Below, piece after piece: positions 475-56,130 of a DNA stretch of 64,000 nucleotides. Source of the stretch: an uncultured Phycisphaerales bacterium. GTDB lineage: Bacteria > Planctomycetota > Phycisphaerae > Tepidisphaerales > Tepidisphaeraceae. The DNA lies in assembly GCA_963758525.1 (NCBI GenBank), contig CAVWVQ010000003.1, forward strand, positions 2,624,001-2,688,000, read 5' to 3'. The notes under the pieces were generated by a model that was given only the letters and a program-made list of their open reading frames with translations, did not search any database and was not told where the DNA came from. A program made the position numbers and the translations under genes. Positions within the stretch are counted from its first letter, which is position 1, and each line of letters opens with the position of its first letter.

Positions 475-1424
475 CCATGCGATGGTGGGACGCTGGCGGA
501 GCAAGAATGTTCCCAAGGTAGAAGCAAGAGAGCCACGTCGATCATTGTTCCAGAGCTTGCCCAAAAATAGCGGAACTGAGTTTCCGCGTTCGACGTGCAC
601 GAACCATAAGCTCGGGCCAGCGGCCTGCCGTCCTTCCACGCCGTAGCCAAACTCATCGCCGTGGCTCGATGACCCCGGCATGAATCGCCTCTTCGAGCCA
701 AAGATTGAATTGCTCAACGGGGTCGGGCCTGAGGTTGACGCAACGTAAGCAGCCCTGGCGATACTCAGTGCGTATATCTGCCGGATTCATCGATAGCCAA
801 AAAGTAGCCTCAGGGTGGTTTCAAGTAAACAGAATCGGGCCGACCGAGGGCTGCCGTAACCACGGGGCACCGCACTGAGCCGCCGCATGGCCATGAACCG
901 AGCCGTTAGCGATCCCGCATGCCCGTCGCGACAGCTCATCGCGCGCCCATAGCCACAGCGCGTCGCGCGGCCTCCACGATCGCAAGCCTGAGACGGTCGT
1001 GGTGGATCCTGACCCACCTGGAACAGTGATCACAAAGCGGGAAATCTCCTCGATCAGCGGACGGCTTACACAGTCGGTCGTGTCAGAGGTAACCCCAGGC
1101 GGGCGGTTTTCGCAATGATGCGGGAGGATCGCGGGCTGAGGTATTGAATGCGCCAGGCATGAAACTGACATTACACCGGCCCTTTCATTGACCCTGTAGA
1201 TTCAAAAACCGTTTTTTGAATTTGCCATCAAGCCGGAGCTAGGTGGAAATGCAAGTTGCCGGTTAGACTGAAGTTATGCAGACGCGCGAGACCGATGTCC
1301 GGCGTTCTGTTCTCGACGCTTCGCTGGGTCGCGATGTGCAAACGCCGTCAAGCATGTGGCCGCAACAAGAGCGTTCTCGTGGCAAGCGGGGATCACGGGA
1401 AATGTAGTACAAGGAAACAGAACA

Positions 1425-17557: not shown

Positions 17558-18598
17558 ATGGCTGCGGACTACTCTCGGATTCACCGGCTGCTCAAGATCC
17601 TCATGCTCATCCAGGGGCAGAAAGATTGGACCGCCAAGCGCCTGGCGCTGGAATGTCACACCACCGAGCGAAGCATCTACCGTGATCTCAAGATGCTGCA
17701 GGGAGCGGGCGTGCCGTATTTCTTTGACAAGGAGAATGGCGGATACGCCGTGCAGAGGGACTTCTTCATGCCGGCGGTGGCTCTCACCCTTGAAGAGTCC
17801 CTGGCCCTGGTGGCGCTGGCCGAGCAAGTAGGGGGGCGCGAGCAGGTGCCATTCACCAAGGCGGCCGCCAAGGCAATCGCCAAGATCCGCTGCAACCTGC
17901 CGCCGAAGGTGCAGCAGGAGCTGCAGAAGATCGACGATCTGGTCGCTATTCACCTCTCACCCGTGAATCCACCGGAGGGCACGGAAGATGTCTACGAGGT
18001 GGTGCGGGCGGCGCTGGCCAACCGCAAGACGCTGGAATGCAGCTACGACTCAATCGGCGCGAGTCAGAAGGGGGTTGATGGCAATGGCGGTGTGAAAGAG
18101 ATCTTTTTGTTCAGGCCGTACACGCTGCTGTTCAGCCAGCGGGCCTGGTACGCGCTGGGGCACCACGATGGCAGAGGTGCCGTGCGGTGTCTGAAGCTGA
18201 ACCGCTTCACACGCTGCAAATCTACCGAGATTCTTTATGACATTCCCAAGAGCTTTGCGGTCGGCAAACATCTGGGCAATGCGTGGCGGATGATCCGGGG
18301 GAGCAAGTCATACGATGTCGAGTTGCGGTTCGATGCCGAGTTCGCCGAGACCATTGCCGACACGCACTGGCACGCAACGCAGGAAGTGATCTGGAACGAC
18401 GACGAGTCAATCACGTTCTGGTGCGAAGTAGACGGTTTGGACGAAATCGTGTGGTGGATCCTGGGGATGGGCCCGCACTGCGTGGTGAAGAAGCCGGCGG
18501 AGTTGGCGAGCCAGGTCAGTGGTCTGGCCGCGGCGATCGTCAAGCAGTACGACGCGAAGCCCTCCAGCAAGCCCCGCAAAAAGATAACTTCACTGTGA
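17558..18598 (+). CDS. HTH-WYL-WCX transcriptional regulator (PafB/YafY/DriD-like)
   Basis: RIHRLLKIL...TERSIYRDLKML wHTH; FRPYTLLFSQRAWYALG...LKLNR WYL; EIVWWILGMG WCX. Confidence 0.93.
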   Translation: MAADYSRIHRLLKILMLIQGQKDWTAKRLALECHTTERSIYRDLKMLQGAGVPYFFDKENGGYAVQRDFFMPAVALTLEESLALVALAEQVGGREQVPFTKAAAKAIAKIRCNLPPKVQQELQKIDDLVAIHLSPVNPPEGTEDVYEVVRAALANRKTLECSYDSIGASQKGVDGNGGVKEIFLFRPYTLLFSQRAWYALGHHDGRGAVRCLKLNRFTRCKSTEILYDIPKSFAVGKHLGNAWRMIRGSKSYDVELRFDAEFAETIADTHWHATQEVIWNDDESITFWCEVDGLDEIVWWILGMGPHCVVKKPAELASQVSGLAAAIVKQYDAKPSSKPRKKITSL

Positions 18599-18612
18599 CG
18601 CGGTGCTGTCAG
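18595..18612. promoter_or_regulatory. Putative WYL box 3 (GTGACGCGGTGCTGTCAG)
   Basis: Same spacing; overlaps the WYL stop codon and precedes ORF 18663. Confidence 0.55.
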
Positions 18613-18662
18613 AGAGCCGCGGCACCGTGCTGCTGGAACATAGAATTAGGCAAGGAAGCCTC

Positions 18663-18944
18663 ATGGCGCAGAAGCGGCAAGAAATCACTGGTGCGAAGAC
18701 CATGTCTGACGAGCGGATATGTCGGTGGGCGATGCTGGCAACGATGCGCACTCTCCGGCTGTCGTTGCGGAAGGGGAGGCCGATCAGTCTGCCCAACCTG
18801 CTGCGCCTGTTCCAGCGAAGATGCGCCGAACGAGCTCTCGCTGGCAACCAGGCACGTGCTCATCACCGGCTGGAGAGTTGGTATCGCCAACATCAGCCGT
18901 TTCAGCAACTGGCCCGACGGTGGTGCTGCCCGCCGCCTCGCTGA
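18663..18944 (+). CDS. Small basic hypothetical protein
   Basis: AAGGAAG RBS and ATG downstream of box 3; the 3' end overlaps an IS remnant. Confidence 0.4.
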   Translation: MAQKRQEITGAKTMSDERICRWAMLATMRTLRLSLRKGRPISLPNLLRLFQRRCAERALAGNQARAHHRLESWYRQHQPFQQLARRWCCPPPR

Positions 18945-19017
18945 GGCGGACTTCAAGGCTCTGCGCGAGGCCCGAAAGACGATGTTGTTTGAGCGTCTGC
19001 AACAGGGAAGATCTCAT
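18928..19017 (-). pseudogene. IS21 IstB N-terminal remnant
   Basis: MRSSLLQTLKQHRLSGLAQSLEVRLSEAAG resembles IstB N-termini; no ATPase domain follows. Confidence 0.6.
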
Positions 19018-19170
19018 GGATTGAGCTCGGGTACTGAAGGTTGTTGGGAAGCGGTTCAAACTTGACGCTTCCGTGCCTTCGCAACGCGGAATTCTGGCGA
19101 TCCGGTGAAATTTCCTAAGATCGTCGTCCCAGTCGTTTTTTACCCTTCTCGCTGCTATTATTGCCGAGCT

Positions 19171-19557
19171 ATGACCCGAATTCCCGATGAAGTGATCCGC
19201 CGCTTTGCGTACAAACGCCATCTGCCACTCGGGGATGCAAGAGGTGTCTTTTCGGACTTGGAGGACTTCCTTGATGCGGCGTCACGCCGCAAGATGGTCC
19301 CGTCCGTGGCCGTTGATGCAGCTTGGCACGAGTTCATTCTTCACACACGGCAGTACGCACAATTTTGTCAAGACCGTTACGGCTGCATGGTCCATCACGT
19401 CCCGACTTCTCCGTGCTCTCTCAACAATGTGGGCGAGATCACAGAAGATTCAACTGCCGGGAACGTTGAATGCGATTCGGATTGTGCTTCTGACAGTCCA
19501 AGCTCACCAATGGAATCGTCATCGTTGAGAACGCGATTGGTCGAAACTGCTAGATAG
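19171..19557 (+). CDS. Glycine-rich-domain-protein-like (GRDP/DUF1399) protein
   Basis: PSVAVDAAWHEFILHTRQYAQFC...HHVP motif. Confidence 0.75.
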   Translation: MTRIPDEVIRRFAYKRHLPLGDARGVFSDLEDFLDAASRRKMVPSVAVDAAWHEFILHTRQYAQFCQDRYGCMVHHVPTSPCSLNNVGEITEDSTAGNVECDSDCASDSPSSPMESSSLRTRLVETAR

Positions 19558-19691: not shown

Positions 19692-20816
19692 TCAGCTGCT
19701 TGGCTGAGCCGGGAGTGCCTTTTGTTGAATCCTTCTGAACAGGTGCAGCAGAGCAGTGAGGGCAGGGGATCGCTCAAACTCATGTGCGCGGTAAAGCATA
19801 CCCATCGGGATGCGAATCTTCTGCAGCTCCTTCGTCAGCAGTCCCTTGCTCAGCTTGCCTTCCGTCTTTAGCGGTGGGTCGTACGATGGCGGCCTTGCAG
19901 CGTGGGCCCAATCCACGAAACTCTTTGTCGCCAGCATCAATGCCGGATCGGGTTGAAATCGCAACACCTGAACCTGGTTCATACTGTCATGTATCTTTGG
20001 CCTTCTCAATGTGAGACGCTCACAACGATCAGAGCCGAGCGACTCGACCAACCACGACCGCGTCACGCCGGGAAGTGGCATATAGGCTAGCCATTGCTCT
20101 ATTTCAACAGGACCTACCGTTAATCCGATCTTCGAAACCAAGGCCGCATTGAGGAGTACAGCCATCTGTTCCTCCCCGATCTTTTCGAAATGAAACCCCT
20201 CCGGAATTCCGACAAGCTCTCCGTTCGTTTCGACGAAAGGCGATAAGAAGCAATCGCAAGTACTAAACTCTGCCTTCACGGCTCCAAAGACATGCCGCGA
20301 GTGGACGGGAGTGATTCGAACCTCCAACTCCGGATTTAACCGCGTGAGATGATACCGAAGGTCCGCCGCGAGACGCAGCATCATGTGCACTGATCCAATT
20401 TCCACCCGCGGCTTCACCTTCGAGGATTGCTCTTCGATTTGCTTCTGAAAGAGCCGTAGGTGTTCCGCTGCCCACCGAGCAAAATGTTCCCCGACAACGG
20501 TTAGCTCGTAAGGTTGTCCGCTACGTCGCTGTTCGGCGACCGTTACCTCCGTATTTAACACCTCCGACAGGAGTCTGGACAGCTTAGTGACACGCCATCG
20601 GACAGATGACGGATCGATGTTCAGCAACACACCTAACTCGCGGGGCGTTTTATTCAGATATAAGTGAGAGGCCAACAGAAGATCGGCGACATCCATCGTC
20701 CCCAGTTTTTCCAAAGCAATCAGGTTCAAGTCGGCCGCCATCGAAGGCCGTTCCGTCGCTGGCGACGTTGGTTCCACAGCCAAGGTCCGCGACGATTTCC
20801 GCACCCGATTTCTCAT
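19692..20816 (-). CDS. Divergent LysR-like transcriptional regulator
   Basis: HTH (LLNIDPSSVRWRVTKL), LTVVGEHF linker, effector-like domain; divergent from the operon at 21072; alternative start near 20741. Confidence 0.55.
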   Translation of the reverse strand: MRNRVRKSSRTLAVEPTSPATERPSMAADLNLIALEKLGTMDVADLLLASHLYLNKTPRELGVLLNIDPSSVRWRVTKLSRLLSEVLNTEVTVAEQRRSGQPYELTVVGEHFARWAAEHLRLFQKQIEEQSSKVKPRVEIGSVHMMLRLAADLRYHLTRLNPELEVRITPVHSRHVFGAVKAEFSTCDCFLSPFVETNGELVGIPEGFHFEKIGEEQMAVLLNAALVSKIGLTVGPVEIEQWLAYMPLPGVTRSWLVESLGSDRCERLTLRRPKIHDSMNQVQVLRFQPDPALMLATKSFVDWAHAARPPSYDPPLKTEGKLSKGLLTKELQKIRIPMGMLYRAHEFERSPALTALLHLFRRIQQKALPAQPSS

Positions 20817-21071
20817 CCCCGGGGATTGTATGCCGTGTCGGCGGGTCGCGCAAGCAGGAATTACCTACTGAATTAAAGATTACTCTGTGTATTTTGTGTT
20901 CGCAAGGTTTATTCTGCGGGGGCCGTCAGCGAGAGGAGGCCCTTGATGTCGCTGGATCGAATGCGTGTAAATTCGCCTGAAGTTTCCCAGACACAGAGGG
21001 ACAGCTCCACCCACCGGTGGTCCCAGTACACGTTGGTGCCGCTCGCTCTTTCGTCGTTCAGAGTTTTTGGC

Positions 21072-21905
21072 ATGAGTACTCCATCCACGATCGACATCAA
21101 GGCCCCGATGTTGTTCCACGACGGATCATCACCGCCGACCGCTGTAGTTGTTTTCGATGCGTTCCGGTGTTCGTCCACGCTCCTGGCTTGCTTCGCTCGC
21201 GGATTGCACGCGGCGGTATTGTCGGAGAAGGGCCAGTCGGCGGCCGGTACGACGATCGGTAAGGCGGAGCAACTAGCACAAGAGCTGAAATGCAAATTAA
21301 TCCTCGGCGGCGAACTGCATGGGCGTGCCGTCAGCGGAGGTGTTGTCGGCAACTCACCGATCGAGTCCTGCACAGCAATTCTTGACGACAGAAAGCTTCT
21401 GCATTTTCAGTCTACTAACTTTGCCCGGTCGTTCAACAAGATCACGGACTACGTACATCAGCAGCGGGAGGGTTTGGTGGAGATATTCGTCATTAGCTAT
21501 GCGAACGCCGCCATCACAGCACAACTAATTCAGAGTTCTGGATACGAACGCATCATCGCTGTTTGTGGTGGTTTCTTCGATTGCATGGCCATCGAAGATA
21601 TGACGCTCGGTGGCAGGTTCATTAGCGAGCTCGGGATCGACGACGGGGATCTCGATGACGATTCGCTGGCGATGCTTGCGTGCTACCGTGCTCTAAATCC
21701 GACGCCTGCCCTTGTGGGTGGGGGTTGGGCAGGACGAGTTCTCCGGCACATTGGTAAAGCCGAGGACATCTGGGACGTCATCGGCACGTCGCGGTTGCCA
21801 CAGCATCAACGCCGCCGCATGTCGAACTTAATCTTGCAGGTTAGATGGATTCACGGCACCCCGATGATTCAAGCGGTGGCCAGTCAACTCCTAACGAGAG
21901 TGTAG
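21072..21905 (+). CDS. 2-phosphosulfolactate phosphatase (ComB)-like protein, divergent
   Basis: VVFDAFRCSST, GGE..G...GNSP, STN, VCGG...IED. Confidence 0.75.
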   Translation: MSTPSTIDIKAPMLFHDGSSPPTAVVVFDAFRCSSTLLACFARGLHAAVLSEKGQSAAGTTIGKAEQLAQELKCKLILGGELHGRAVSGGVVGNSPIESCTAILDDRKLLHFQSTNFARSFNKITDYVHQQREGLVEIFVISYANAAITAQLIQSSGYERIIAVCGGFFDCMAIEDMTLGGRFISELGIDDGDLDDDSLAMLACYRALNPTPALVGGGWAGRVLRHIGKAEDIWDVIGTSRLPQHQRRRMSNLILQVRWIHGTPMIQAVASQLLTRV

Positions 21906-21907
21906 AG

Positions 21908-22321
21908 ATGAATTGCTTCATCATCAAGAAGTCCTTCCACTTTCACGCGGCCCACCGCAACGAAGATCTTTCTAACGATAGATGCTTCTCAATTCACGGT
22001 CATACGTACCACGTAGACTGTCACTTCGCTTTCACAAAAGCCGACTCCCACAGTGTCACGATGCTATTTTCTGATATTGAGAAGCAGGTACTCCCGGTGC
22101 TGGCTCCATTCGAGCACAGCTTCATCGTGAATCGGGTAGACCCCCTATATACGGTGTTGAGGGACCAAGGCATTAAACTCTGTGTCCTCGATCATCCCTC
22201 ATCTGCGGAAAATCTCGCACAACTATTCTTCGATCGAATACGGGCGAACACTGAGCTGAACCTAGTTCGGTTAGACCTTCAGGAGACGGAGAGTTCTGTC
22301 GTTTCCTATTGTGGTTCCTAG
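21908..22321 (+). CDS. queD: 6-carboxytetrahydropterin synthase / PTPS family
   Basis: KSFHFHAAH, CFSIHGHTY, SAENLA, LQETES. Confidence 0.9.
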   Translation: MNCFIIKKSFHFHAAHRNEDLSNDRCFSIHGHTYHVDCHFAFTKADSHSVTMLFSDIEKQVLPVLAPFEHSFIVNRVDPLYTVLRDQGIKLCVLDHPSSAENLAQLFFDRIRANTELNLVRLDLQETESSVVSYCGS

Positions 22322-22928
22322 GTACAGCAGGCCGAAGGACGTGGCCGAAATGAATCCTCTTTTGCTGATACCGAAGTGGTTGTACATGGCACGCAAACAT
22401 GGCGTGCCGAAGCCGGAGGCGTTCTGCTTGAGCACCATCACAAGGGCGGGAATGCCGTCTTCGCGGATGATGTTGGTAACCGAATGTCTTGACGGGGAGC
22501 TAATCTTTTGCACTGACTGTCGGAGCAATAAGGGTCAAAACATATCTGATAATCCCGCGGCGGCGGCGTTGCTCTATTGGCAGCCAATTAGTCGCCAAGT
22601 GCGGCTCGAAGGAACGATCGAACCCGCACAGGATTCACTTGCAGACGCAGATTTCAATAGAAAAACGGCTGGTCAGCGGTTGATCATTTCGCTGGGCATC
22701 CAGAGCAGCACGCTGCGTCGCTACCGCCGTCTTGCTTTTGACGTTTCTGACAAGCTGTCAGTGATGGCGGACGGTGCTCAGCTGACTAGGCCGTGGTACT
22801 GGAAGGCATATCGCCTGCGAGCTTCACGCGTCGAATTTTTCCGTGGCGGCTCGCATCGGCTGAATCGTCGGCTCTCGTTCCTATTAGATGAGCGCGGCCG
22901 ATGGAAAGCTCAACGTCTATATCCCTAG
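22311..22928 (+). CDS. Pyridoxamine 5'-phosphate oxidase (PdxH/PhzG)-like FMN enzyme, divergent
   Basis: LSTI...PSSRM, SNKG, RQVRLEG, RPWYW, VEF...RL...W...RLYP. Confidence 0.8.
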   Translation: MVPRYSRPKDVAEMNPLLLIPKWLYMARKHGVPKPEAFCLSTITRAGMPSSRMMLVTECLDGELIFCTDCRSNKGQNISDNPAAAALLYWQPISRQVRLEGTIEPAQDSLADADFNRKTAGQRLIISLGIQSSTLRRYRRLAFDVSDKLSVMADGAQLTRPWYWKAYRLRASRVEFFRGGSHRLNRRLSFLLDERGRWKAQRLYP

Positions 22929-22963
22929 CCACCGATAAGGTAACGGCCATCCATCAGGAGTTT

Positions 22964-23935
22964 ATGATCGACGCTGTCCAGTTAATCTCGCACGCGGTGT
23001 TTGATCTGCCAGACGCCGGTGACACGGTCGCAATCCTTTGCCATTTCAACCCGTGCCTCTACATATCACCCGTCCGGAATCTCGCAGCCACCCTCGATTG
23101 GCTTTTGGCGGAAGAACTTCCCACGTATGCAATCGAGCTGAGGTGCGGTCATAGCGTATCTGCACCACCCGTCTTACCAGTTGGCCATCGGAAGGTGCTT
23201 CAACTTACCAGCGACTCCTGGATGTTCGTGAAAGATAATCTTTGGAATGTTCTTGCGAAAAATCTACCGGCTCACTTCTCGAACATAATCTGCGTCGACG
23301 CTGACGTGAGCTTGAGGACACGGGGTTGGAAAAAGACCTTAGCAGATCGCTTAGGGTCATTTCCAGTCGTTCAGCCGTTTAGCCGCGGGGTTTGGCTTGA
23401 TTCCATTGGCAATGTGTTCAAAGAGAAATACTCGTGCGGTTATGCGGCCAACTGCGGCCTCCCGACGCCGCATCTGTCAAAGGAATATCACTGCGGATTT
23501 GCGGTCGCCGTGCGGCGAGATTTCTGGGCGGAGACCGGCGGCTTTTTCAATAGCCCGGTTGGGGGTGGGTCGTTGTTCCTTATGTCAGCTACGCTCGGCG
23601 TAGAAAATGAACTCGAGCCGATCCTTTCCAGTGCAGCTCCAGCGTTTGCTCGCCAGTACCGGGAGTGGGCTGACCGAGTTAGATGTTGGTCCCACCAAAG
23701 GCTGGGGCACGTGGACGGCGATGCTTACCACCTTTGGCACGGATCCCGGGCCAAGCGTCGCTACTTTGACAGATTTGAACTACTCAGCGGCTTCGATCCA
23801 TTCACGGATGTCGAAAGTAAGCCGTCGGGACTCCACGAATGGAGCCCAGTGGCTCGGACGACTAAGCAGACTATGTTGCGGAGAATTGAGGACTACTTCA
23901 AAGAACGCGAGGAAGACGAGCACGTCGTTCCCTGA
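22964..23935 (+). CDS. Putative GT-A fold glycosyltransferase-like protein
   Basis: KDNLWN, ICVDADV (DxD), VVQPF, GFAVAVRRDFW, HLWHG...RRY; AGGAG RBS. Confidence 0.6.
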   Translation: MIDAVQLISHAVFDLPDAGDTVAILCHFNPCLYISPVRNLAATLDWLLAEELPTYAIELRCGHSVSAPPVLPVGHRKVLQLTSDSWMFVKDNLWNVLAKNLPAHFSNIICVDADVSLRTRGWKKTLADRLGSFPVVQPFSRGVWLDSIGNVFKEKYSCGYAANCGLPTPHLSKEYHCGFAVAVRRDFWAETGGFFNSPVGGGSLFLMSATLGVENELEPILSSAAPAFARQYREWADRVRCWSHQRLGHVDGDAYHLWHGSRAKRRYFDRFELLSGFDPFTDVESKPSGLHEWSPVARTTKQTMLRRIEDYFKEREEDEHVVP

Positions 23936-24403: not shown

Positions 24404-27400
24404 ATGTTCGCACCTCGCGTGACGGCGTCTTGTTTGGCCCTTGCACTGGTTGTCGCGGGATTGCTCCTGGCGGATGAGCCGGGCAACGCACCCGGGCCGA
24501 AGGATCCGTGTTATCTTGGGCATGTTTCCACGGACAAACCGATCTATCGACCGGGAGAACGGGTCTGGCTGCGCGGCGTCGTCCTGGGGGCGCTGGATCA
24601 CAAGCCCTTGCCGGAGGGACAATCAGCTGATGCCGTTTTGCAGATCACCGGCCCCAGGGGGGAGCAGCTTTTCACGACAAATGGGCAGATTCAAGAGAGC
24701 GTGGCGGGGTTCGCCTGGGATGTGCCTGCCGACGCGGCTGGCGGGCAATATGCGGCCGTCGTCAGTTTTCCCTATAGCGGGTTCCCACCGGCAAAACGCA
24801 TTTTTGACGTGCGAGCCTATCGCGCTCCGCGGCTCAAGGGTGAGATTATCTTCCTTCGCGATGGATTCGGGCCGGGCGACATGGTCAGAGCATCGCTCCA
24901 TGTTGAGCGCGCCGAAGGCGGCCTGCCCGCCGGGGCAAAAGTGTCGGCAACCGCCATCGTCGATGGCCAAGACGCGTACTCGGGCCAGACGGTCATTGAT
25001 CCGGCCGGGAATTGCTCGGTTGCGTTTACGCTGCCGGCCCGGATCGAGCGCGGCGACGGGACGCTCTCGCTGGCGGTAGCCGATGGCGGCGTGGTCGAGC
25101 CGATCGCCAAGACGATCCCAATTCTGCTGAAGAGCGTTGATCTGGCGATCTATCCCGAGGGAGGCGATCTGGTCGCCGGGTTGCCTTGCAGGGTCTATGT
25201 CGAAGCGCGCACCACCGCGCAGAAGCCGGCGGACCTGGTGGGACAGGTGATCGATTCGCATGGCAACGCCGTGGTCGATTTTGCTACCGAGCATGAGGGG
25301 CGCGGCCGATTTATCCTCACCCCCAAAACCGGTGAGAGCTATGCGATCAAGCTTTCGCAGCCCTCGGGCATCACCAGGATCTACCCGCTCCCCGCGGCCA
25401 AGACCGAGGGCGTCGTGCTGCTGGCGTTGGACGATATGACCCGGGGCGGCGAGCCGATCCGACTCAACATCGCGGGGACCGCCGCCGGATCATACGATGT
25501 CAGCCTTTCCAAACGGCAGACGGAAGTGGCGTCCGCCCCCGTCAAACTGCTGCCCGGCGTGGCCGCGCAAGTGGTTCTCACGCCGCCTTCATGGGCGGAC
25601 GGCGTGCTGGTCGCGACCGTAAAGACCGCCGACGGCACTCCCATCAGTGAACGGCTGATCTTCCGCCAAAGCGCCCGGGCCATCCACGTGAAGGTGACAG
25701 CGGATCGACCTTCCTTCACGCCCGCCGACCAGGTGAACATCAGCGTCACCACCACGGACGACGCCGGAAAGCCGGTGCCGGCGGTCGTTGGCGTCACCGC
25801 CACCGACGAAGCCGTACTGCGCATCCCAGAAAAGCGCGATCGCGCCCCGCGGCTGGGGGCGATGGTGCTCCTGGGAAATGACGTGCGTGACCTGGCCGAC
25901 GCCGGGGCCTATCTCGACCGGGCTGATTCCAAGGCACCGCTGGCAACCGATTTGCTTCTTGGGACGCAGGGATGGCGCAGGTTCGCGACGGTCGATGCGA
26001 AAAAGTTCATCGCCGCCTACGGCGATCCCGCCCGGCGCGCCTGGGAGATCTGCTGCCGCCGCAACCGATGTTCTGGAATGTTGCCGGTGGCCGGGGCGGA
26101 GGCGGTCGGTTCTTTGCAGTGACCGCCGCCCGGGCTCCTGGGCCGATGGTACGTGAGCAGAACGCGGCGGAAGACGCAAAGCTCAACGATCGCGCTGCAG
26201 AGAACAGGCCGCCTGCCGCCCCCGCGATGGTCGACCAGTCGCAAGCCGGGCAACAGGTAAGGAAGGACCTGCAATTGCAGCCGGCGGCTGACATGCCGGC
26301 GACACAGCCGGCAGCAATGCCGATTGCGATGCCGCCGCCGCTTCCCGTCGTTCGCATCTATGCCCACGATCTCCAGCCCAATCGATCCAGCAGCGATCGC
26401 ACCGATTTCACCGAGACACTGTACTGGGCCGCCGGCGTAAAGACCGACGAAAAGACCGGGACGGCAACACTCTCCTTCCATCTCAATGACTCGGTCACCA
26501 GCTTTGCCATTACCGCCGACGCATTCGATGCTTCGGGAGCACTGGGCGAAGGCAAGACGATCATCACCTCCTCTAAGCCGTTCTACGTTGAGCCCAAACT
26601 GCCGCTGGAAGTGAGCGTCGGCGATCTGATTCACCTCCCGATCGCGGCCGTCAATAACACGCGGAGCAATCTGGATCGCGTCCGTCTCACTCTCAACGGC
26701 GGAGCCGGGCTGAGCATCTCTCCGATCCAGGAGTTTGATCTTCCGGCTGGCCAGCGCGTGCGGCAATTGGTTGATCTGCGCGTTGGCGCTGCGCCGGGAA
26801 CCACAAAGGTCGTTGTCGATGCCCGCGCCGGCGACTTTACCGATCAGGTAACGCGCACGCTGGCCATCGTGCCGCTGGGATTCCCGACAGAAATCAACAA
26901 GGGCGGGCTGGTCAGCTCCGCCGGCAGCGTGGTCGACGAAATCCAGGTTCCCCAGTCTGTGGTGGCGGGAAGCATGAAAACCTCGGCCGCCCTCTACCCC
27001 ACTCCATTGGCCAATCTCACCGAGGCGTTGCAGGGGCTGTTGCAGGGGCCAAACGGCTGCTTCGAGCAGACCACCTCGACCAACTATCCGCTGGTCATGG
27101 CCGACCAATATTTCACGACCCATGCCGGGGTCGACCCATCGCTCATCGCCCACAGCAACGATCTGCTGGATAAGGGATACGCGCGACTGACCAGTTTTCA
27201 GTGCAAGAACAAGGGGTATGAATGGTTCGGCGAAGACCCCGGACACGAATGCCTGACGGCGTACGGGCTGCTTGAGTTCACCGATATGTCCGCCGTTCGC
27301 AGCGTCGATCCCGCGATGCTTCAGAACACACGCACCTGGCTGCTGGCCCGACGTGACGGCAAGGGAGGCTTCACCCACGAACGGCGTGCCCTGCATACCT

Positions 27401-28488
27401 GGGTCACCGATCCCGACTGTGCCAACGGCTATTGCACATGGGCCCTGCTCGAAACCGGCCAGAGCGGCCTCGATACAGAGGTGAAGTGGCTCGCGGAGCA
27501 CGCACAAACCGATCCCAACAGCTATGTCAAAGCCCTGGCCGCCAGCTCCCTGTACCTCGCCGGCGACAAGGCCGGTGCGCGGCAGTTCATGGATCGGCTG
27601 GCCGACCTGCAGGATAAAGACGGCCACGTTCGCGGAGCAGTCACCACCGTCGTCGGCAGCGGCGGAGACAGCCTGGAAATCGAAACCACCTCGTTGGCGA
27701 CACTGGCGTGGCTGCGCGAGCCGGCGTACGCCGCACATGTCGAGTCGGCCATCCGCTACCTGGCCGACTCCTGCAAAGCCGGACGATACGGCTCGACGCA
27801 ATCGACCGTGCTGGCGCTGCGCGCGATCATCGCCTATGACAAAGCCCGCGCCCATCCGACCGCCGCCGGCAAAGTGCTGCTTTTTGTCGATCATCAAGGC
27901 GTGGGCGAAGCGATCACCTTTGACGCCAGTTCCACCGGCGCGATCAAGCTCCCCGACTTCTCAGCGCAGATGACGCCCGGCGAACACGCTGTCGAATTGC
28001 GCATGACCGACGGCTCCAGTCTTCCGGACGCCGTCACGGTGTCATTCAACAGCGTGACGCCCGTCTCTTCCAAGGGGTGCCCACTGACGATGACCACGGC
28101 GCTTGCCGATCCGCAGGTGGCCGAAGGAGCGCCCACCGAGGCGCGGGTGACGATCACCAACCGGTCGGTCGCGACGCTCCCCACTCCGATCGCGATCGTC
28201 GGCCTGCCCGGCGGCCTGGAAGTGCGGCACGATCAACTCAAGGAACTGGTGAAAGCCGGCCGCATCGCCGCCTACGACGTGCGCGGCCGGGAGGTGATCC
28301 TGTATTGGCGTGACATTCAGTCCAAGCAGACCATCGAGGTCCCGCTCAGCCTGACCGCTGCCATCCCCGGTGAATACACCGGCCCGGCCAGCCGTGCGTA
28401 CCTGTATTACTGCGATGAATTCAAGCAATGGCTGCCGGGAATGAAAGTCACCATCATGGCCAAGGCCTCGCAAGCCCAGCGGGGATGA
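24404..28488 (+). CDS. Bacterial alpha-2-macroglobulin family protein, with one frameshift at ~26040
   Basis: Signal peptide, STDKPIYRPGE (MG2), YPEGGDLV, RTDFTETLYW, thioester GCFEQ; one extra C in GCC|CTG restores a single ORF. Confidence 0.9.
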
Positions 28489-31718: not shown

Positions 31719-34700
31719 ATGTACCACGACACAGAGGGCCTGCGCTTTTCGCCCACCGACCTGATCGTCTACCTGGAGGGTGAGTTCGGCTCATGGATGG
31801 ACCGGTCGTATCTGGAGCAGAGGCGAGAAATGAACGCACCGGCGACGGCCGCAGGCGCGGCGCTGGCGTATCGGCCGGATGGCGACAGCGCGGAAATGAA
31901 GCTGATCAAGGTCAAGGGAATAGAGCACGAGCAAGCATTCCTGCAGTCGCTCAAGACAGCGGGTTACAGAATTGTCGAGGTTATCCAGGGCGATGACGCC
32001 GCAGGTCACACTCTGCAGGCCATGCGCGATGGCGCTCAGGTCATCTATCAGGCGTGCGTCGAGGCCGCACCGTTCCGTGGTTACGCCGACTTTCTGAATC
32101 GACAGGGGGGCATCTCATCCCTGGGCGCACACCACTACGAAGTCTGGGATACGAAGTTGGCGAAATCCGCCAAGCCGTATTTCGTGATCCAGCTGTGCGC
32201 CTATGCCGAAATGCTCGAAGTGCTGCAAGGCCGCCGGCCGGAGGGCGTGGAGATTGTGCTGGGCACCAACGATCGCCGGCGTTTCAGGACCAACAACTAT
32301 TTTTACTACTACCGCTGTCTGAAGAACGGTTTTTTGAAGTTCCAGGAAAAGTTCGACGCAGAACAGATGCCTCATCCCGGTTTCTCACGGGGCTACGGGC
32401 GCTGGAGCGACGTGGCGGAGAGGATCCTGGCCGAATCCGACCACCTGATTGGCGTGGCACGGATGACCCGAACGCAGGTGAAGCGGCTGGAAGCTGCCGG
32501 CATCACGACGATCGCGGCGCTGGCCGCTTCCAATCAGTCGACAATCCTCGGCATGGACCCCCTGATCCTGGCCCGGCTCAGGAAACAGGCGCAGCTGCAG
32601 ATTCAATCTCGTGGCAAAGACACGCCGGCATTCGAGGTGGTGGCACCGCAGGCCGACGATCCCCGGCGCGGGCTGGCGCTTCTGCCACCTCCTTCGCCGG
32701 GGGATGTGTTCTTCGACATGGAAGGCTACCCCTTTGCGGCCGACGGATTGGAATACCTGTTTGGAGCCACATATCAGGAAGGGAAAGAGTTGCGGTTCGC
32801 CGACTGGTGGGCGCACGACGCGATTCAAGAGAAAACCGCCTTCGTGGGGTTTGTGACCTGGGCGCACCGGCGATGGAAGCGCGACCCGGACATGCACATT
32901 TACCACTACGCGGCCTACGAGCCCTCGGCGCTGCGACGGCTCATGGGTAAGTTTGCCACCTGCGAAGTCGAGGTGGATGAGCTGCTGCGGAACCAGGTCT
33001 TCGTGGACCTCTACACCGTGGTGCGGCAAGGCGTGGTCGTCGGGACGCCGAGCTATTCACTGAAAGACGTCGAGCGGGCGTACATGCGGCCGCGAACCGG
33101 GTCGGTAACAAGCGCTTCTGGATCGATCATCGCATATCAAGCATGGATGGAGAGTGAGCAGCCGCAGAGCTGGCAGGGCTCCCCGATCCTTCGGGAGATC
33201 CGTGATTACAACCAACTGGACTGTGATTCGACGTTCGAGCTCGCGGTCTGGCTGCGCAGGGTGCAGGCCACGCATAACATCGCCTACCTTCCGGAGAAGA
33301 CCGACGCGCCTGGCGACGCGGATCACGAGGACCCCGGCAGGGAGAATCCCAGCAAGGCTCTGGCCGAGAGACTCCTGAAGGAGATTGAAGACAACAAGGT
33401 CACCGATCCCGAGCGCCGGCGGGTGCAGGAGTTGTTGGCGTGGCTGCTGGAGTTCCACTGGCGAGAAGCCAAGCCGGTCTTCTGGCTCATGTTTGAGCGC
33501 CACGACATGACCGAAGAAGAGCTGTCGGCTGACCTGGACTGCCTCGGCGGCCTGCAACGAACCAAAGAACGACCGATACCGGTAGATCGCTCGCGGTTGA
33601 TCGGCTACCGGTACGACCCTGACCAGGACACCAAACTTTGTCCCGGCAGTAAATGCTTCTTTGCTCACGACCTGAGCGCGAAGGTCACCATCGAGACGAT
33701 GGACCGGCAATAGGGGCTGCTCCAGATTCGGTTCGGTCCATCCGTACCAGAAGTCCCTGACCGACTGAATCTAATTCCCAACGAGTACGTATCTGCAAGG
33801 TCGATCTCTGACGCCGTCTGCCGCTACGTGGATGGATGGAGCCACGGTCAGATTCGATCGCAGGCGGTCGATGATCTGATCCACCGCCGGCTTCCCTGGA
33901 TCAAGAGGCATGCGGGCGGCGCAGTGGTGCCGGACGGCGTCGATCTGCTGCCGGCGCTGACCGACGTCATGCGGCGGCTGGATCACACGACGCTGTGTAT
34001 CCAGGGGCCACCGGGATCGGGCAAAACATTTACCGCGGCGCATGTCATCGCCGAGCTGCTGCGTGACGGCAGACGGATCGGGGTCATGGCCAGCAGCCAC
34101 AAGGCGATCCTGAACCTGATGGAGGCGATCGCCGAGGCCGTTGAAGAGAAAGGGATCACCGCACGGCTGGTGAAGGTGGGTGGCGACGCTGATGAACCGT
34201 TGATCGCAACCGGTGTGGTTGAGCATTGCCCCCAAAACTCAGCTGCCGCAGAGGAACTGGGGTCTCGAAGCCTCGTGCTTGGGGGGACTGCCTGGCTCTT
34301 CAGTCGACCGGAGCTGGAAGGGCAGTTGGATTACTTGTTCGTGGACGAAGCTGGACAGGTTTCGCTGGCGAACATCGTCGGCAGCGGGCCGTGTGCCAGG
34401 AACATCATCCTCGTGGGCGATCAGATGCAGCTATCGCAGCCGACGAAGGGATCGCATCCCGGCGAGAGCGGCCTATCCGCGCTCGATTACCTCCTCCAAG
34501 GACACGCGACGATCCCGCCCGAACTGGGCGTGTTCCTGAGCAAGACATATCGTATGCACCCGGAAGTCTGCGAATTTATCTCGCAGGCCGTGTACGAGGG
34601 GCGGCTGAAGTCTCATCCCGATACCGCCAGGCAGGCGGTCCTCTGCGGTGATAAAGACCACGGAATGATCCGACGGCAGTCAGGCGTGAGCTTTGTGCCC

Positions 34701-35168
34701 GTCGAGCATGAAGGCAACGCCCAGGCAAGCGACGAGGAAATCGAGATCATCGAGGCGATCATCAGGCAGTTGCTCGGCAGGTGCGTGGTTGAGCGTGATG
34801 GTACGCAACGGGATTTAACGCTCAGCGACATCCTGATCGTCGCGCCGTACAACATGCAGGTCCGGCGACTGCAGGTCCGGCTGGGAACCAATGCTCGCGT
34901 TGGCACGGTCGACAGTTTCCAGGGCCAGGAAGCTCATGTGGTGATTGTCTCTATGTGCGCGTCGAGCGTGGAAGACAGTCCACGCGGGCTTGAGTTCCTG
35001 TTGAACAAGAACCGCATCAATGTTGCGGTGTCCAGGGCAAAGAGCCTCGCGATTGTGGTGTGGTGCCCGAATCTCATGGCAGCACGCTGCCGCACGATCG
35101 AGCAGATGGAACTCGTGAATCTGTTTTGCTGGCTGGCGGCATATGCGGAAGAGTTGTCGGCCCGATAG
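31719..35168 (+). pseudogene. TM0106-family RecB-like nuclease / RNase H-like / SF1 helicase, with one in-frame TAG at 33711-33713
   Basis: FSPTDL, GYADFL..YEVWDTK, FFDMEG, YNQLDC, QGPPGSGKT, VDEAGQ, GDQMQL, FQGQE, NVAVSRA; both ORFs share one frame. Confidence 0.9.
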
Positions 35169-36247: not shown

Positions 36248-36387
36248 CGCGCCTTCGATGCACTTCCAATCCCGTGGTGATCGAAGCATACGCAGCCTTG
36301 CTAAGCCTCTCCATCGGGGCTGTTCCGTTTTGACTGTTTGCTGGCGTGGGACCGCTCCCAACGTTAATCTTTTCCCACGCGGGGAAC

Positions 36388-39300
36388 ATGAGCACTCAAT
36401 CGAACATCCACTCTCCGAACTTCTCGTTTCTAGGCAGGCACGGCGAAGTCCTACTCAGGTACGGTGCCTTGGCCGAGCGATACGTCTTTGACGATCCCAA
36501 CTCCGCACTGATTAAACTTCGCCAGCTTGGCGAGGCGCTCGCGAAGAAGATCGCCGCGTCCATCGGCTTGGCGATCGATCCCGACATCGACTTTCTTGGT
36601 CTGTTAAACAAGCTCCGCGATTCCGGGGTGCTGACACCCGAGGTCGCCGAGCTTTTCCACGGTCTCCGCAAGGCGGGCAACGCGGCCGCCCATGACGGTG
36701 TCGGGACACAACGCGAAGCACTGCATCAGCTCAAGATGGCTCGCATCCTCGGAGTGTGGTTTCAGAAGGCATTCGGAAACGAGCCGAAGTTCAAGGCCGG
36801 TCCCTTCGTGCCTCCGCCCGACCCGCGCCAGGCTGAATCAGCCCTCGTTGCGGAACTCGATCAGCTCCGCAAACAACTCGCCGCTGGCGAAGCGGAAACC
36901 CACACCGCGAAATTGACCGCCCAACAAGAGGCGAAACTCAGACAGGACGCCGAGGTCCGCGCCAGCGCCATGTATCACGACCTGGAGGCGGCCTTCGCTC
37001 TCGCCGAAGATGCTGAACGCCGCCTCGAAGCCGACCGTCGGCAATTCGCGCAGGCACTCGCCACCCAACAGGCACAGGTGGTGCAACAGGCTACAGTTGC
37101 TCCGGCTACCGTTCAGGCCACCATCAGCCTGGCTATCCAGGCCGGCAACGCGCTCGATCTCTCCGAAGCCGATACTCGTAAGCTCATTGACGCCGAACTC
37201 CGAGAGGCCGGCTGGGAAGCCGACACCCCTCTCCTCCGCTATGCTGCCGGCACCCGACCACAGAAGGGGACCAACATCGCCATCGCCGAGTGGCCCACAG
37301 CCTCCGGCCCCGCTGACTACGCCCTGTTCGTCGGGCTCGTCTGCGTCGGCGTGGTTGAGGCCAAGCGCAAGAACAAGGATGTGGCCGGCTCCATCGAGCA
37401 GGCCAAACGCTACAGCAGGGGTTTTACGTTCGACGCTAATCAAACCGCAACGGGAAGCCCGTGGGGTTCTTACAAGGTCCCGTTCCTATTCGCCACCAAC
37501 GGCCGGCCATTTCTTCGGCAACTCATCACCAAGAGCGGCATCTGGTTCCTCGACGGCCGCGCCGCACACAATAACGCCCGCGCCCTCCAGGGTTGGTACA
37601 CGCCCAGCGGCCTGTTGGACCTCCTCAAACAGGACGAGCAGGCCGCCCAGGAAACCCTCCGTGCCGAGCCAACCGACTACCTGCCGCTCCGCGACTTCCA
37701 GAAGCGTGCCATCGCCGCCGTCGAGAAAGCGCTGGAGCAATCCCGCCGTCAACTGCTCATCGCCATGGCCACTGGCACCGGCAAGACCCGAACCAGCATT
37801 GGCATGGTTTACCGCCTGATCAAAGCCAAGCGATTTAACCGCGTCCTGTTCCTCGTGGACCGTTCCGCCCTTGGCGAGCAGGCCACCGACGCCTTTAAGG
37901 ACGTGCGACTTGAGAGCCTCAAGACCTTCTCTGACATTTATGACGTGAAGGAGATGGGCGACCTCCGTCCCGACGCAGACACTCGTCTTCACGTTGGCAC
38001 CATCCAGGGCATGATGCGCCGCATCCTCCTCTCCGAGGACCGCGAGCCCATCCCCGTCGATCTCTATGATTGCATCGTCGTCGACGAGTGCCATCGCGGC
38101 TACCGCTGGGATGACCTGATAATGAAAGACGGCATCGAGCAGCTCAACTTCTATAAATCCCTACTCCTGCACCTGGGCACCAAGGGCTCTGGTCGCGTGC
38201 AGGCGATCTTCGCCGACGCCACGACCTCGCTCCGCCAGCCACGCAATCTGGCCAAGCTCGTGACCGACATTGATGCCCTCGACTGGTATTCTGCAAAGAG
38301 CGAAGGTCTTGGAGATCTCTATGAAGGGCTGTTGGAGAAGAATGCCAACGAGAAGAAGTCCGGTGCCGGGCAGTATTTCACGCCACGACCACTGATCGAG
38401 TGCATGGTCGAGCTCACCCAGCCCCAGGCTGGCGAGTTCGTGCAGGACCCTGCTGCCGGCACCGGCGGCTTTCTCATCGCCGCCGACCGGTACATCAAGG
38501 CCCGTACCGACGACCTCTTCAAGCTTTCCGTGCGCCTGCAGGATTTTCAGAAGCGCCAAGCATTCTACGGCATCGAGCTTGTCCCCGACGCCCACCGCCT
38601 GCTGCTGATGAACGCTATGCTGCACGATATTGAAGGTGATCTGATTCTCGGCGATACGCTTTCCGCCGACGGTGCCAAGCTCCCCGTCGCCGATGTCATC
38701 CTCACCAATCCGCCGTTCGGCACGAAGAAAGGGGGCGGTCAGCCCACCCGTGACGACTTCACCTACCCCACTTCCAACAAGCAGCTCTGCTTCCTCCAGC
38801 ATGTTTACCGTGGCTTGCGTCCCAGCACCAAGGAGAAGGTTAGTCGTGCGGCCATCGTCCTGCCGGACAACGTCCTGTTTGAAGAAGGCGTCGGTGCCCA
38901 GGTCCGGGCTGATCTGATGGACAAGTGCAACTTACACACGATCCTTCGCCTGCCGACCGGCATCTTCTACGCGCAGGGTGTCAAGACCAATGTCCTGTTC
39001 TTCACCCGCGGCCTGGCCGCGAAGGACACCGGCAACACTAAGGGCGTCTGGATCTACAACATGCGGGCCAACATGCCTGCTTTCGGCAAGCGCACGCCTC
39101 TCACCATCGAGCATTTCAAAGACTTCAGGGTCGCCTATGGTCGCGACCCGCTCGGCCAATCGAAGCGGAAAGACCATGGGGAGGAAGGACGCTTCCGCTA
39201 CTTCACCCGCGAGTTCATCCGCGACAAGAAGGGCGAAAGCCTCGACATTTCCTGGCTGAAGGACGATAGCGACGGCAGCAACGAAGTGCTGCCCGATCCT

Positions 39301-39399
39301 GATGAAATCGCGGCTGCGATAACGGCGAAGCTGAAGACGGCGATGAAGGAGATGGGCGAGCTTGTGGAGATACTGGAAGGGCAGGAGGTGGACACGTGA
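36388..39399 (+). CDS. In-frame fusion of Type I HsdR N-terminal half and HsdM (N6-adenine MTase)
   Basis: DUF4145-like start, PADY..VVEAKR nuclease, MATGTGKT, DECHRGY, then directly RWDDL...GQYFTPR, DPAAGTGG, TNPPF. Confidence 0.9.
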   Translation: MSTQSNIHSPNFSFLGRHGEVLLRYGALAERYVFDDPNSALIKLRQLGEALAKKIAASIGLAIDPDIDFLGLLNKLRDSGVLTPEVAELFHGLRKAGNAAAHDGVGTQREALHQLKMARILGVWFQKAFGNEPKFKAGPFVPPPDPRQAESALVAELDQLRKQLAAGEAETHTAKLTAQQEAKLRQDAEVRASAMYHDLEAAFALAEDAERRLEADRRQFAQALATQQAQVVQQATVAPATVQATISLAIQAGNALDLSEADTRKLIDAELREAGWEADTPLLRYAAGTRPQKGTNIAIAEWPTASGPADYALFVGLVCVGVVEAKRKNKDVAGSIEQAKRYSRGFTFDANQTATGSPWGSYKVPFLFATNGRPFLRQLITKSGIWFLDGRAAHNNARALQGWYTPSGLLDLLKQDEQAAQETLRAEPTDYLPLRDFQKRAIAAVEKALEQSRRQLLIAMATGTGKTRTSIGMVYRLIKAKRFNRVLFLVDRSALGEQATDAFKDVRLESLKTFSDIYDVKEMGDLRPDADTRLHVGTIQGMMRRILLSEDREPIPVDLYDCIVVDECHRGYRWDDLIMKDGIEQLNFYKSLLLHLGTKGSGRVQAIFADATTSLRQPRNLAKLVTDIDALDWYSAKSEGLGDLYEGLLEKNANEKKSGAGQYFTPRPLIECMVELTQPQAGEFVQDPAAGTGGFLIAADRYIKARTDDLFKLSVRLQDFQKRQAFYGIELVPDAHRLLLMNAMLHDIEGDLILGDTLSADGAKLPVADVILTNPPFGTKKGGGQPTRDDFTYPTSNKQLCFLQHVYRGLRPSTKEKVSRAAIVLPDNVLFEEGVGAQVRADLMDKCNLHTILRLPTGIFYAQGVKTNVLFFTRGLAAKDTGNTKGVWIYNMRANMPAFGKRTPLTIEHFKDFRVAYGRDPLGQSKRKDHGEEGRFRYFTREFIRDKKGESLDISWLKDDSDGSNEVLPDPDEIAAAITAKLKTAMKEMGELVEILEGQEVDT

Positions 39400-53579: not shown

Positions 53580-53606
53580 TCTGGTTCCATCGAACGACAA
53601 CGGAGA

Positions 53607-53890
53607 GTGCTGATGCGCCGCTCGCGTTTCTATGCCGGCATACTCATGGTGCTGTTGACGGCTGCTGGCATCACATCAGCGGACACCCTCAAGGTCGGGC
53701 CGGGCGAGAAGTTCGCCAAGCCTTCGCAGGCGTTTGCCGCCGCCGCGGAAGGCGATGTCATTGAAATCGCGGCCGGCGAATACAGGGGTGACGTCGCCAT
53801 CATTCAAACTAATAAGCTTCTGATTCGTGGGATGGGCAGACAACCCGTGAAAATCCCCGCCGATGGCAAGAACGCTGGCGGCAAGGCTCG
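53607..53890 (+). pseudogene. Truncated secreted beta-helix-type protein
   Basis: Signal peptide, TLKVGPG...GDVIEIAAGEY; sequence degenerates after GGKA. Confidence 0.55.
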
Positions 53891-54470
53891 ATCGCGCAGG
53901 GGCTCGATCGGACGTCGTCGCCAACGGATACGATCCTTGCAGTCCAATTTAGTGGCGAAGTCAAGCGGGTGTGGGAGACTGTCACACAACAGCAATGATT
54001 AACCCAATCAAACTGATCGTCCTCATCATGGCAACCTCTGGCGCGGCAGCCGCGGCCCAGGCGGAGAACGGCCAACCGCTGCTGCTCTCCTACGGCGATA
54101 CCTGCATCGGGACTTAGTCGAGACCCCCAGGGAGGGGGACCAGACTATGGCCATCCCCCAATCGCTGCTCGCGGCCAAACGCTGTGCAAACGATGTTGAT
54201 GAACTCTGGTGGAATCCGAATCCAGGTTCGCCGGGAACGCCAAAGGTCCTCATCGGAAAGGCGGATGACGGCGCTGCCCATCATCAATAGGAGCAACACT
54301 AATTAGTCAAACACGGATCGTATCGGTGGCTTGACCGCTCACGCCGCTCCCGCCTGGCCCGCTGCCAATGCTGATACGCCGTCGCCGGCGGCGTCGAGAA
54401 CTTCCAGCGATATAGGCCTTGCATTATTCCCGTGTGGAACGGGGCGGGTTAATCCACGCCCGAACTGCAT

Positions 54471-54944
54471 CTAAGGAGCAACAGCCACCACCCCGACATT
54501 CGGATCATCGGGGCACGGTACCTGCAGGACGCTCCGGCTTTTGTCATTCGCCTGATCCACCCAATCCTTATCACCCGGCTTCTTAATCAATACCTCTGAA
54601 GGGGAGAGCCCCATTGCCGTTATGCCAGCGGCATGCATCCGCTCCAGTTCATCCTTTCCTTTTGGCGAGTACTTCAGGAGATACCCTGCAAATTCCTTCT
54701 TACCGCAACTGAAGACGTAGCACTGAACCGCTTCTTTGCCGTTGTGATCCACGGGCGCGACGAGCTTGCTGTTGTCAGCAAACCAGGTTTTTCCGTCATC
54801 GACCGTGAAGAACACGCTGGCCGGGCCCAGCTGGCGGTGAGAACGGAGTTGCGAGATCGAGACCGCAATTGCAATCACGGCAGCCGCGATCACTGCGGCG
54901 ATGAAGATAATCGGATTCCGGTTGATGGTTTCGCGCACCGACAT
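54471..54944 (-). CDS. Exported hypothetical protein, paralog of 57784-58314
   Basis: MSVRETINR, DDGKTWF, HNGK, EVLIKKPG, CP. Confidence 0.8.
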   Translation of the reverse strand: MSVRETINRNPIIFIAAVIAAAVIAIAVSISQLRSHRQLGPASVFFTVDDGKTWFADNSKLVAPVDHNGKEAVQCYVFSCGKKEFAGYLLKYSPKGKDELERMHAAGITAMGLSPSEVLIKKPGDKDWVDQANDKSRSVLQVPCPDDPNVGVVAVAP

Positions 54945-54995
54945 ATTGGGCACCTCTGGCAGGTTGATTCATCCGAACGGCGACTGACGTGTCCA

Positions 54996-56042: not shown

Positions 56043-56130
56043 ATTTGCACGTGCGAACTATTTGAGCCGTGGATCGCCCAGCGACACGAGACATGGATGC
56101 AATGGTTTCACAAGCTTCCCGGTGAAAAAC

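Follow-up and report, generated by a model that had tools for sequence, protein, structure and literature searches.

What would a bacterium make with a ComB-like phosphatase, a QueD-like enzyme, a PdxH-like flavoprotein and a glycosyltransferase (GT) encoded in one row? The question is raised by positions 19692..23935 of a 64,000-nucleotide stretch of an uncultured Phycisphaerales bacterium (assembly GCA_963758525.1, contig CAVWVQ010000003.1, positions 2,624,001 to 2,688,000 of the forward strand), hereafter the window. All five open reading frames (ORFs) that a first-pass annotation had placed there, namely these four genes and a divergent LysR-like regulator, were found. That annotation described an orphan operon inside a defence island, which would make a pterin- or deazapurine-derived glycosylated metabolite or act as a conflict system. 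The four-gene cassette is real, rare, conserved and apparently undescribed, and it works like a small heterocycle-tailoring cluster; a pterin-derived glycosylated product is the best reading.

The cassette recurs in metagenomes

For each cassette gene, the close relatives make up a small clade of their own and come almost entirely from metagenomes: the ComB-like protein has 10 homologues at 34-50% identity, the QueD-like protein 27 at 50-74%, the flavoprotein (below, the oxidase) 13 further representatives, and the GT 18 at 41-58%. When metagenomes were scanned with the GT, 59 loci were obtained, of which 3 reach at least 40% identity; one of the 59, L003, carries all four genes in the same order as the window (identities of 41% for ComB, 55% for QueD, 41% for the oxidase and 40% for the GT). 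The L003 row reads ComB, QueD, oxidase, zinc deaminase (PF00383), GT and a sulfotransferase-like gene; the deaminase gene, seen in L003 only, lies between the oxidase and the GT, and the sulfotransferase-like gene behind the GT was recognised from a motif read by eye and has no Pfam match. Directly upstream of the cassette in L003 is a PADLOC match to ZacA (E = 1.5e-58). The LysR gene is without a tblastn match in L003, and folE, queE and queC are absent from this locus (queF was not searched for in the window or in L003).

Source-contig sizes provided further, indirect links. For nine of the 27 QueD-clade proteins, the source contig has exactly the same size as that of a ComB or close-GT protein (jittered sizes give an expectation of 0.11), compared with 0 exact matches in the control sets (distant GTs and outgroup QueDs). 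For the oxidase clade, the size look-up covered 10 of the 14 representatives, 8 of which share an exact size with a cassette partner (0.052 expected). The 15 shared sizes comprise ComB with QueD (3), QueD with oxidase (4), QueD with GT (4), oxidase with GT (2), ComB with QueD and oxidase (1), and QueD with oxidase and GT (1); the shared size of 30069 belongs to a near copy of the L003 lineage. Across the linked pairs, the divergence of QueD tracks that of ComB (rho = 0.78, p = 0.0014, 6 pairs). QueD and the oxidase look like the core of the cassette, with ComB and the GT varying. The label of orphan can thus be dropped, given that the set recurs in L003 and in the size-matched links. On the points on which the first-pass annotation had staked its proposal, the gene set is found elsewhere and no gene groups with housekeeping orthologues.

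The cassette is nevertheless rare, because a scan of GTDB species genomes with ComB-clade patterns gave no second copy; among the 50 stretches matched, 1 was confirmed, a distant archaeal ComB at 25% identity. On viral contigs, the GT and ComB searches gave no cassette relatives, and the QueD search returned 21 outgroup loci at 27-45% identity. A QueD-clade profile produced 3 weaker matches in 400 genomes of the phylum, two of them beside folE, and a GT profile produced distant matches in 3 of 400 genomes of the class. Plasmids yielded 5 distant GT matches and no ComB-clade match, and phage records one weak QueD match.

Four proteins with distinct active sites

None of the cassette proteins matches a PADLOC family (0 families), and the three that Pfam names (ComB, PTPS and PdxH-like) all score below the NCBIfam equivalog cut-offs. 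The QueD-like protein matches PF01242 (PTPS, E = 2e-22) and, as had been noted for the window sequence, keeps its His/Cys/Glu motifs: His16, Cys26, His30, His32, His70, Glu101 and Glu126 are retained in 27/27 clade rows, as are the Cx3HGH motif, the third Zn His, and the His71 and Glu equivalents, and the first-triad Asp has become Glu in 22/27. Cx3HGH is the PTPS-I/QueD signature (PMC5041015, PMC9894224). The protein scores 57 bits, against a cut-off of 89 for the TIGR03367 equivalog. Asp54 is absent in 27/27 rows and His25 in 6/27, residues that we take to form the second triad of QueD. Their loss as a sign of an altered product was considered and rejected: all 13 of 13 outgroup QueDs lack both, the queE-linked ones included. 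The nearest outgroup QueDs lie in 21 viral loci, with a queE match in 21/21, folE in 15 and queC in 9, and outgroup QueDs are also found beside folE in two same-phylum genomes. Given a queE match in every one of these viral loci and none in the cassette, the cassette protein looks like a preQ0-type QueD that left QueE behind. It is likely, judging from its motifs, to make 6-carboxy-tetrahydropterin (CPH4) from dihydroneopterin triphosphate.

The oxidase combines the PNPOx_N and PNP_phzG_C domains and, clade-wide, carries EFFR..RLNRR in place of the canonical PdxH EFWQ..RLHDR, as the first-pass annotation had described for the window protein. In a quick tree of 75 rows, the 15 oxidase rows form one group (SH-aLRT 99) separate from the PdxH proteins of E. 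coli and of relatives of the host. The contacts of E. coli PdxH with pyridoxal 5'-phosphate (PLP) are given as Tyr129, Arg133, Ser137, Arg197, His199, Arg14 and Tyr17 (PMC10969823). Only Arg197 of these is kept in 15/15 rows of the oxidase clade, and all 15 are without Arg14, Tyr17, Lys72, Tyr129, Ser137 and His199; Asp/Glu129, Lys133, Asn/Gln199, Arg/Lys200, Asp84 and Arg86 are the replacements throughout the clade, and Trp191 is changed to Phe or Leu. Arg67, Ser87, Lys89, Gln111, Gln146, Ser147, Arg197 and Arg201 are kept in 15/15 rows (Arg67 in 14, with one gap), and these residues, Arg197 aside, are presumably FMN-side contacts. Since the changes are conserved replacements and not decay, they point to a new anionic substrate. 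The window protein scores 133 bits against the TIGR00558 (pdxH) cut-off of 180, with 14 clade proteins at 99-155 bits, and 130 bits against the cut-off of 270 for PhzG (NF038138); no phz family match was found among the neighbour proteins scanned. By bit score, PhzG proteins are the closest of the solved relatives (82-95 bits, compared with 69 for E. coli PdxH), among them 1t9m, which we take to be a PhzG. PhzG oxidises hexahydro- and tetrahydrophenazine carboxylates (PMC13692746). In the cassette clade, the pocket for vitamin B6 is gone and a cationic pocket, itself conserved, has been acquired, which is what one would expect of a PhzG-like oxidase. A route to a vitamin B6 glycoside was considered and rejected, both for the loss of the PLP pocket and because it would leave QueD unexplained.

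The GT has no Pfam, NCBIfam or PADLOC match. Its model (pLDDT 96.1) is a GT-A domain with best matches to GT2-type enzymes (Foldseek E = 5e-8; Z 13.3 and rmsd 3.3 over 199 aligned residues of 8viw). No solved relative was found by sequence with the GT alignment (best E = 0.79). In 89 GT sequences, at most 3 of which match any Pfam GT family, D112 and D114 (DxD) and the C-terminal H256 and H259 are invariant. The xED base position, set from motif order and the model helix 202-211 and not from structural superposition, holds Asp in 75/89 sequences and Ser or Ala in 14 (Ser203 in the window GT), and all 8 cassette-linked GTs are among these 14. An absent Asp at this position is associated with anionic acceptors or with a retaining transfer (PMC7185993). 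The wider GT family is largely viral, and a virion glycosylation family is possible: in the phage-like contigs L004, L005, L012, L023 and L036, its members follow tape-measure- or tail-like genes and also adjoin methyltransferases (both read by eye). A separate cluster around another Asp-less GT of the cassette GT's clade (L001:571-11436) encodes a P-loop kinase, two radical SAM enzymes, nucleotidyltransferases, a GT4, a methyltransferase and a cytidylate-kinase-like protein, and looks like an undescribed nucleotide-derived pathway.

The ComB-like protein matches PF04029 (E = 2e-20), and its model matches 2z0j/1vr0/2yyv, with Foldseek TM of 0.66-0.68 to the ComB fold. The core residues DxxR, GE, NSP, TN and ED are kept. 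The motif changes reported by the first-pass annotation extend across the clade: STNF replaces TTNG in 12/12 rows, TTNG being present in both housekeeping ComB controls, and the 12 rows also gained conserved aromatics and a lysine relative to these 2 controls. One guess is that the aromatics stack on a heterocycle. With at most 46 bits against equivalog cut-offs of 175-440, the protein falls short of assignment as a 2-phosphosulfolactate phosphatase. The clade-wide residue changes in the oxidase and ComB support the suggestion, made from the window alone, that these enzymes may act on new substrates.

Proposed pathway and rival explanations

We propose, with slightly less than even confidence, that the cassette would turn the QueD product into an oxidised pterin, which is then sugar-linked and dephosphorylated. 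The genes, their folds, residues and linkage are observed, and from these we infer every reaction step. Host FolE, of which there are two genes, would supply dihydroneopterin triphosphate by established chemistry, and the QueD-like enzyme, going by its motif, would convert this to CPH4. In the place of QueE, the FMN protein would oxidise the pyrazine ring of CPH4 to a dihydro- or fully oxidised 6-carboxypterin, a step suggested by the pocket remodelling and paralleled by PhzG acting on reduced phenazine carboxylates; CPH4 is likened to the PhzG substrates because it too is a reduced pyrazine carboxylate. In some loci, as the gene in L003 suggests, the zinc deaminase could then convert the pterin to a lumazine. 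The base-less GT-A would put a sugar on a carboxylate or phosphate, or act by a retaining mechanism, and the ComB-like protein would remove a phosphate from an intermediate, the least constrained step. The weakest points of the pathway are the acceptor group of the GT and the substrate of ComB.

Several observations weigh against this proposal. All four genes together were read in two loci only, the window and L003, and the 15 links beyond these are size matches only, none of which joins ComB with the GT. Co-divergence is borderline for QueD and the GT (rho = 0.61, p = 0.056, 7 pairs) and was not detected for QueD and the oxidase (rho = 0.21, p = 0.20, 7 pairs, excluding one near-duplicate pair). 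In the quick tree, a grouping of the oxidase clade with PhzG has a support of only 71, so that the comparison with PhzG is one of analogy and not of membership. An Asp-less GT of the same clade, that of L001, lies in a different cluster, which is QueD-free within the 12.7 kb covered. As 6-carboxypterin is without a hydroxyl or phosphate, the roles of the GT and ComB are not simply explained. CPH4 oxidises slowly even without an enzyme (PMC9894224), and both queE and queC are present in trans in the host genome.

The chemistry might also be the same and its purpose different. By draining or destroying CPH4 and its precursor, or by making an inhibitory pterin, the cassette could block the 7-deazaguanine armour of phage DNA and so leave it exposed to restriction enzymes, an anti-phage function that we regard as unlikely. 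It would fit the defence genes that adjoin both read loci (those of the window; the ZacA match in L003), the position of the nearest QueD relatives in viral folE-queE-queC clusters, the mostly viral wider GT family and the reuse of QueC in defence twice (PMC13329287). However, there are two such contexts only, the four proteins are without a PADLOC match, the cassette has no sensor, toxin or nuclease, the island holds non-defence cargo too, and a LysR regulator fits metabolite-controlled expression. The earlier suggestion of a conflict system has the neighbourhood of defence genes (2/2 read loci) as its sole basis. More specifically, a phage-type QueD and the oxidase might burn off CPH4 and park a glycosylated pterin, denying phages their armour against the restriction enzymes of the same island, which is unlikely; protection against phages, if true, would make the cassette a counter to DNA hypermodification. 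A deazapurine glycoside of the huimycin type, for which QueD would raise the flux and host QueE and QueC would complete a core to be decorated by the GT, deaminase and oxidase, is given a similarly low probability. The host has queE, queC and two folE, and a 7-deazaguanine is a conceivable substrate of the L003 deaminase; known clusters employ GTs, but the same source defines full pathways by clustered FolE, QueD and QueE (10.64898/2026.04.15.718813). Moreover, queC as well as queE is missing from both read loci, and a core that is already aromatic has no need of a PhzG-like oxidase, although no partner in the cassette is more constant than this enzyme. With no queE in either read locus, the deazapurine half of the earlier prediction is less likely than its pterin half, a pterin-derived glycosylated metabolite.

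Very unlikely is a role in which no small molecule is released and an anionic group, pterin-derived or other, is instead attached to a surface glycan or a protein. Distant GT relatives do occur in phage tail regions among GTs and methyltransferases (read by eye), and the sulfotransferase-like gene behind the L003 GT would suit such a role, but neither locus has export, polymerase or nucleotide-sugar genes, and the distant GT members keep the Asp lost in the cassette type. Least credible is a chance cluster of housekeeping or replacement genes, with the PdxH-like protein standing in for a missing pdxH. The host has pdxJ, and in its assembly an intact canonical pdxH was not found, only a 5' remnant (612-790), in a family in which 17/24 genomes carry pdxH. 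However, the assembly is 91% complete, the gene set recurs, a comB and three other PTPS genes are present in the host besides those of the cassette, 15/15 oxidase rows have lost the PLP-binding residues, and the oxidase scores 133 bits, compared with 248-286 for the pdxH of relatives, such that this explanation is already largely refuted. The oxidised pterin remains the reading that we favour.

Gene models and genomic setting

Table 1 Features of the cassette locus (window coordinates)
Feature	Coordinates	Strand	Evidence
LysR-type regulator, divergent	19692..20816	-	ESM Atlas 0.98 to LysR clusters; local to window locus
Intergenic gap, 129 bp, AT-rich core, between divergent genes	20817..20945	.	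Sequence
ComB-fold phosphatase-like, rare clade, 319 aa	20946..21905	+	PF04029; clade homologues; model; ribosome-binding site
QueD-like, PTPS-I motif Cx3HGH, distinct clade, 137 aa	21908..22321	+	PF01242; clade; residues
PdxH/PhzG-fold flavoprotein, remodelled substrate pocket, 192 aa	22350..22928	+	Clade; residue table
GT-A fold glycosyltransferase-like, without xED base Asp, 323 aa	22964..23935	+	Model; fold searches

The start of the PdxH-like gene was moved to the ATG at 22350, most likely the true start according to homologue N-termini and a ribosome-binding site, and with this start the 11-bp overlap with QueD becomes a 28-bp gap. Of the tight coupling reported at first, the gaps of 2 bp (ComB/QueD) and 35 bp (oxidase/GT) are unchanged. 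The ComB start was moved as well, most likely to 20946, on the basis of homologues and a strong ribosome-binding site; the GT-A protein would have 344 aa with a start at 22901, and the LysR-type gene start is uncertain (candidates 20816, 20741 and 20696). The gap between the divergent genes is probably their shared promoter region, from its sequence, and in it neither a sigma-70 consensus site nor a convincing Rfam match was found; at the cassette as a whole, the searches for repeats, terminal repeats, promoters and Rfam elements likewise gave nothing convincing. The divergent gene annotated as a LysR-like regulator is present, but it resembles LysR only via ESM Atlas (score 0.98, 212-215 shared features), has no Pfam or NCBIfam family match (best Pfam HTH_24, E = 0.14), and is absent at L003.

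The lower GC content seen at the outset was borne out: the cassette has 54.0% GC compared with 59.0% in the left flank, 64.0% in the right flank and 60.7% in the contig, a value this low occurring in only 0.19% of 1050 equal-sized contig windows, and third-position GC is 0.59-0.64 in the cassette stretch compared with 0.74-0.79 in three flanking genes. The cassette has no DNA match in 40 related genomes, in which the flanking WYL and macroglobulin genes are matched, and the ComB matches there are all distant (best E = 2e-16 compared with 2e-127); the unpublished genome G004 is one row in the tallies of the 40 relatives and of family pdxH, and none of the conclusions depends on that row alone. 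The cassette is a horizontally acquired, GC-poor, conserved unit. About 7.8 kb before the window lies a tRNA-Ser, followed by a gene resembling an integrase (read by eye); there is no tRNA inside the window, and no right-hand attachment site was found among the matches listed. Defence genes in the window include a STAND NTPase, a TIR-like effector, ARPP-1, a WYL regulator, a Mokosh-like helicase, type I restriction-modification, GmrSD and Mrr. A defence island is thus broadly correct, except that the right-hand neighbour of the cassette is an alpha-2-macroglobulin gene, part of the island's non-defence cargo, and the restriction genes are 12-25 kb away. As predicted, folE, queE and queC are absent from the window, and also from the 116-kb stretch spanning it; elsewhere the host genome has two folE, queC, queE, one TGT-family gene (tgt), pdxJ, three other PTPS genes and a typical comB.

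Several neighbouring features were recorded. A 128-aa ORF at 19171-19557 (+), convergent with the LysR gene and of equally low GC, has no Pfam match and weak matches in 2/200 class genomes; we take its motif to resemble glycine-rich-domain/TIGR04222-type proteins. The low-GC stretch has at its left edge a short frame at 18860-19030 (-) that is unmatched elsewhere in the genome and seems to resemble the beginning of an IS21 IstB helper. The WYL regulator and a small downstream ORF (17558-18900) have a paralogous copy at C3:806224-807489. The canonical pdxH remnant at 612-790 (-) spans ~58 codons, is frameshifted, and adjoins the end of a polymerase-like gene of an integrated element. Among the regions 24404-28488, 31719-35168 and 36346-39399, the genes for alpha-2-macroglobulin and for a RecB-like nuclease/helicase each fall into two pieces, and the N-terminal half of HsdR continues in frame into HsdM, through either assembly errors or decay. 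From ~53600 to 64000 and beyond on C3, several genes have near-identical downstream copies (e.g. 53607 and 72303; 66891 and 86756, in window coordinates), by tandem duplication or assembly artefact.

Comparison with known systems

Literature searches, with subscription papers and bioRxiv supplements outside their scope, found no description of the gene set, in keeping with the first-pass annotation, which knew of no described pathway with this combination. In the portions of the literature covered, the one enzymatic fate of CPH4 is ring contraction by QueE to deazaguanines; the QueD-oxidase pair without QueE points to a second CPH4 branch with an undescribed pterin product. Mining for deazapurine pathways by QueE would miss the cassette, which supplies three remodelled enzyme clades, namely a PdxH-fold oxidase, a ComB-fold phosphatase and a base-less GT-A whose family lacks a Pfam model.

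The preQ0/7-deazapurine clusters (FolE-QueD-QueE-QueC; huimycin, dapiramicin) share with the cassette a QueD-type first committed step that starts from dihydroneopterin triphosphate, a GT as tailoring enzyme and a regulator beside the cluster (10.64898/2026.04.15.718813). The cassette differs in being without clustered folE, queE and queC, so that FolE, QueD and QueE do not occur together in one window, and in having a PdxH/PhzG-fold oxidase and a ComB-fold phosphatase instead; the same source contains 0 occurrences of 'pyridox', 'phosphatase' and 'deaminase'. PhzG (NF038138; 1ty9, 4hms) has, like the oxidase, the PdxH fold with Lys72, Tyr129, Ser137 and the N-terminal lid residues lost. However, PhzG keeps Arg133, Trp191 and His199, all of which are changed in the cassette clade, no phz genes are nearby, and a sister grouping with PhzG is unsupported.

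Among enzymes acting on sugars, GpgS and MpgS are glycosyl-phosphoglycerate synthases that are paired with phosphatases. These pairs resemble the cassette in that a base-less GT-A is encoded with a phosphatase, but the match of GpgS/MpgS (structure 3f1y) to the cassette GT is limited to Z 9.4 and 10% identity, the cassette has pterin-type partner genes, and ComB belongs to another phosphatase fold. QatABCD and type IV CBASS (PMC13329287, 10.1101/2025.04.06.647259) likewise reuse deazaguanine-pathway chemistry near defence genes; there, QueC-like enzymes modify a partner protein and are accompanied by ATPase, nuclease or cyclase parts, none of which is in the cassette. Closest in proposed product class are the cyanobacterial and Chlorobium pterin glycosides (cyanopterin, biopterin glucoside), which are also sugar-linked pterins of the FolE branch (PMC5683033, PMC13259868). 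In these, the side-chain hydroxyl of biopterin is glycosylated by a GT-1/AviGT-4-like enzyme (PMC5683033), whereas the cassette combines a GT-A without the base Asp with a PTPS-I QueD and no reductase.

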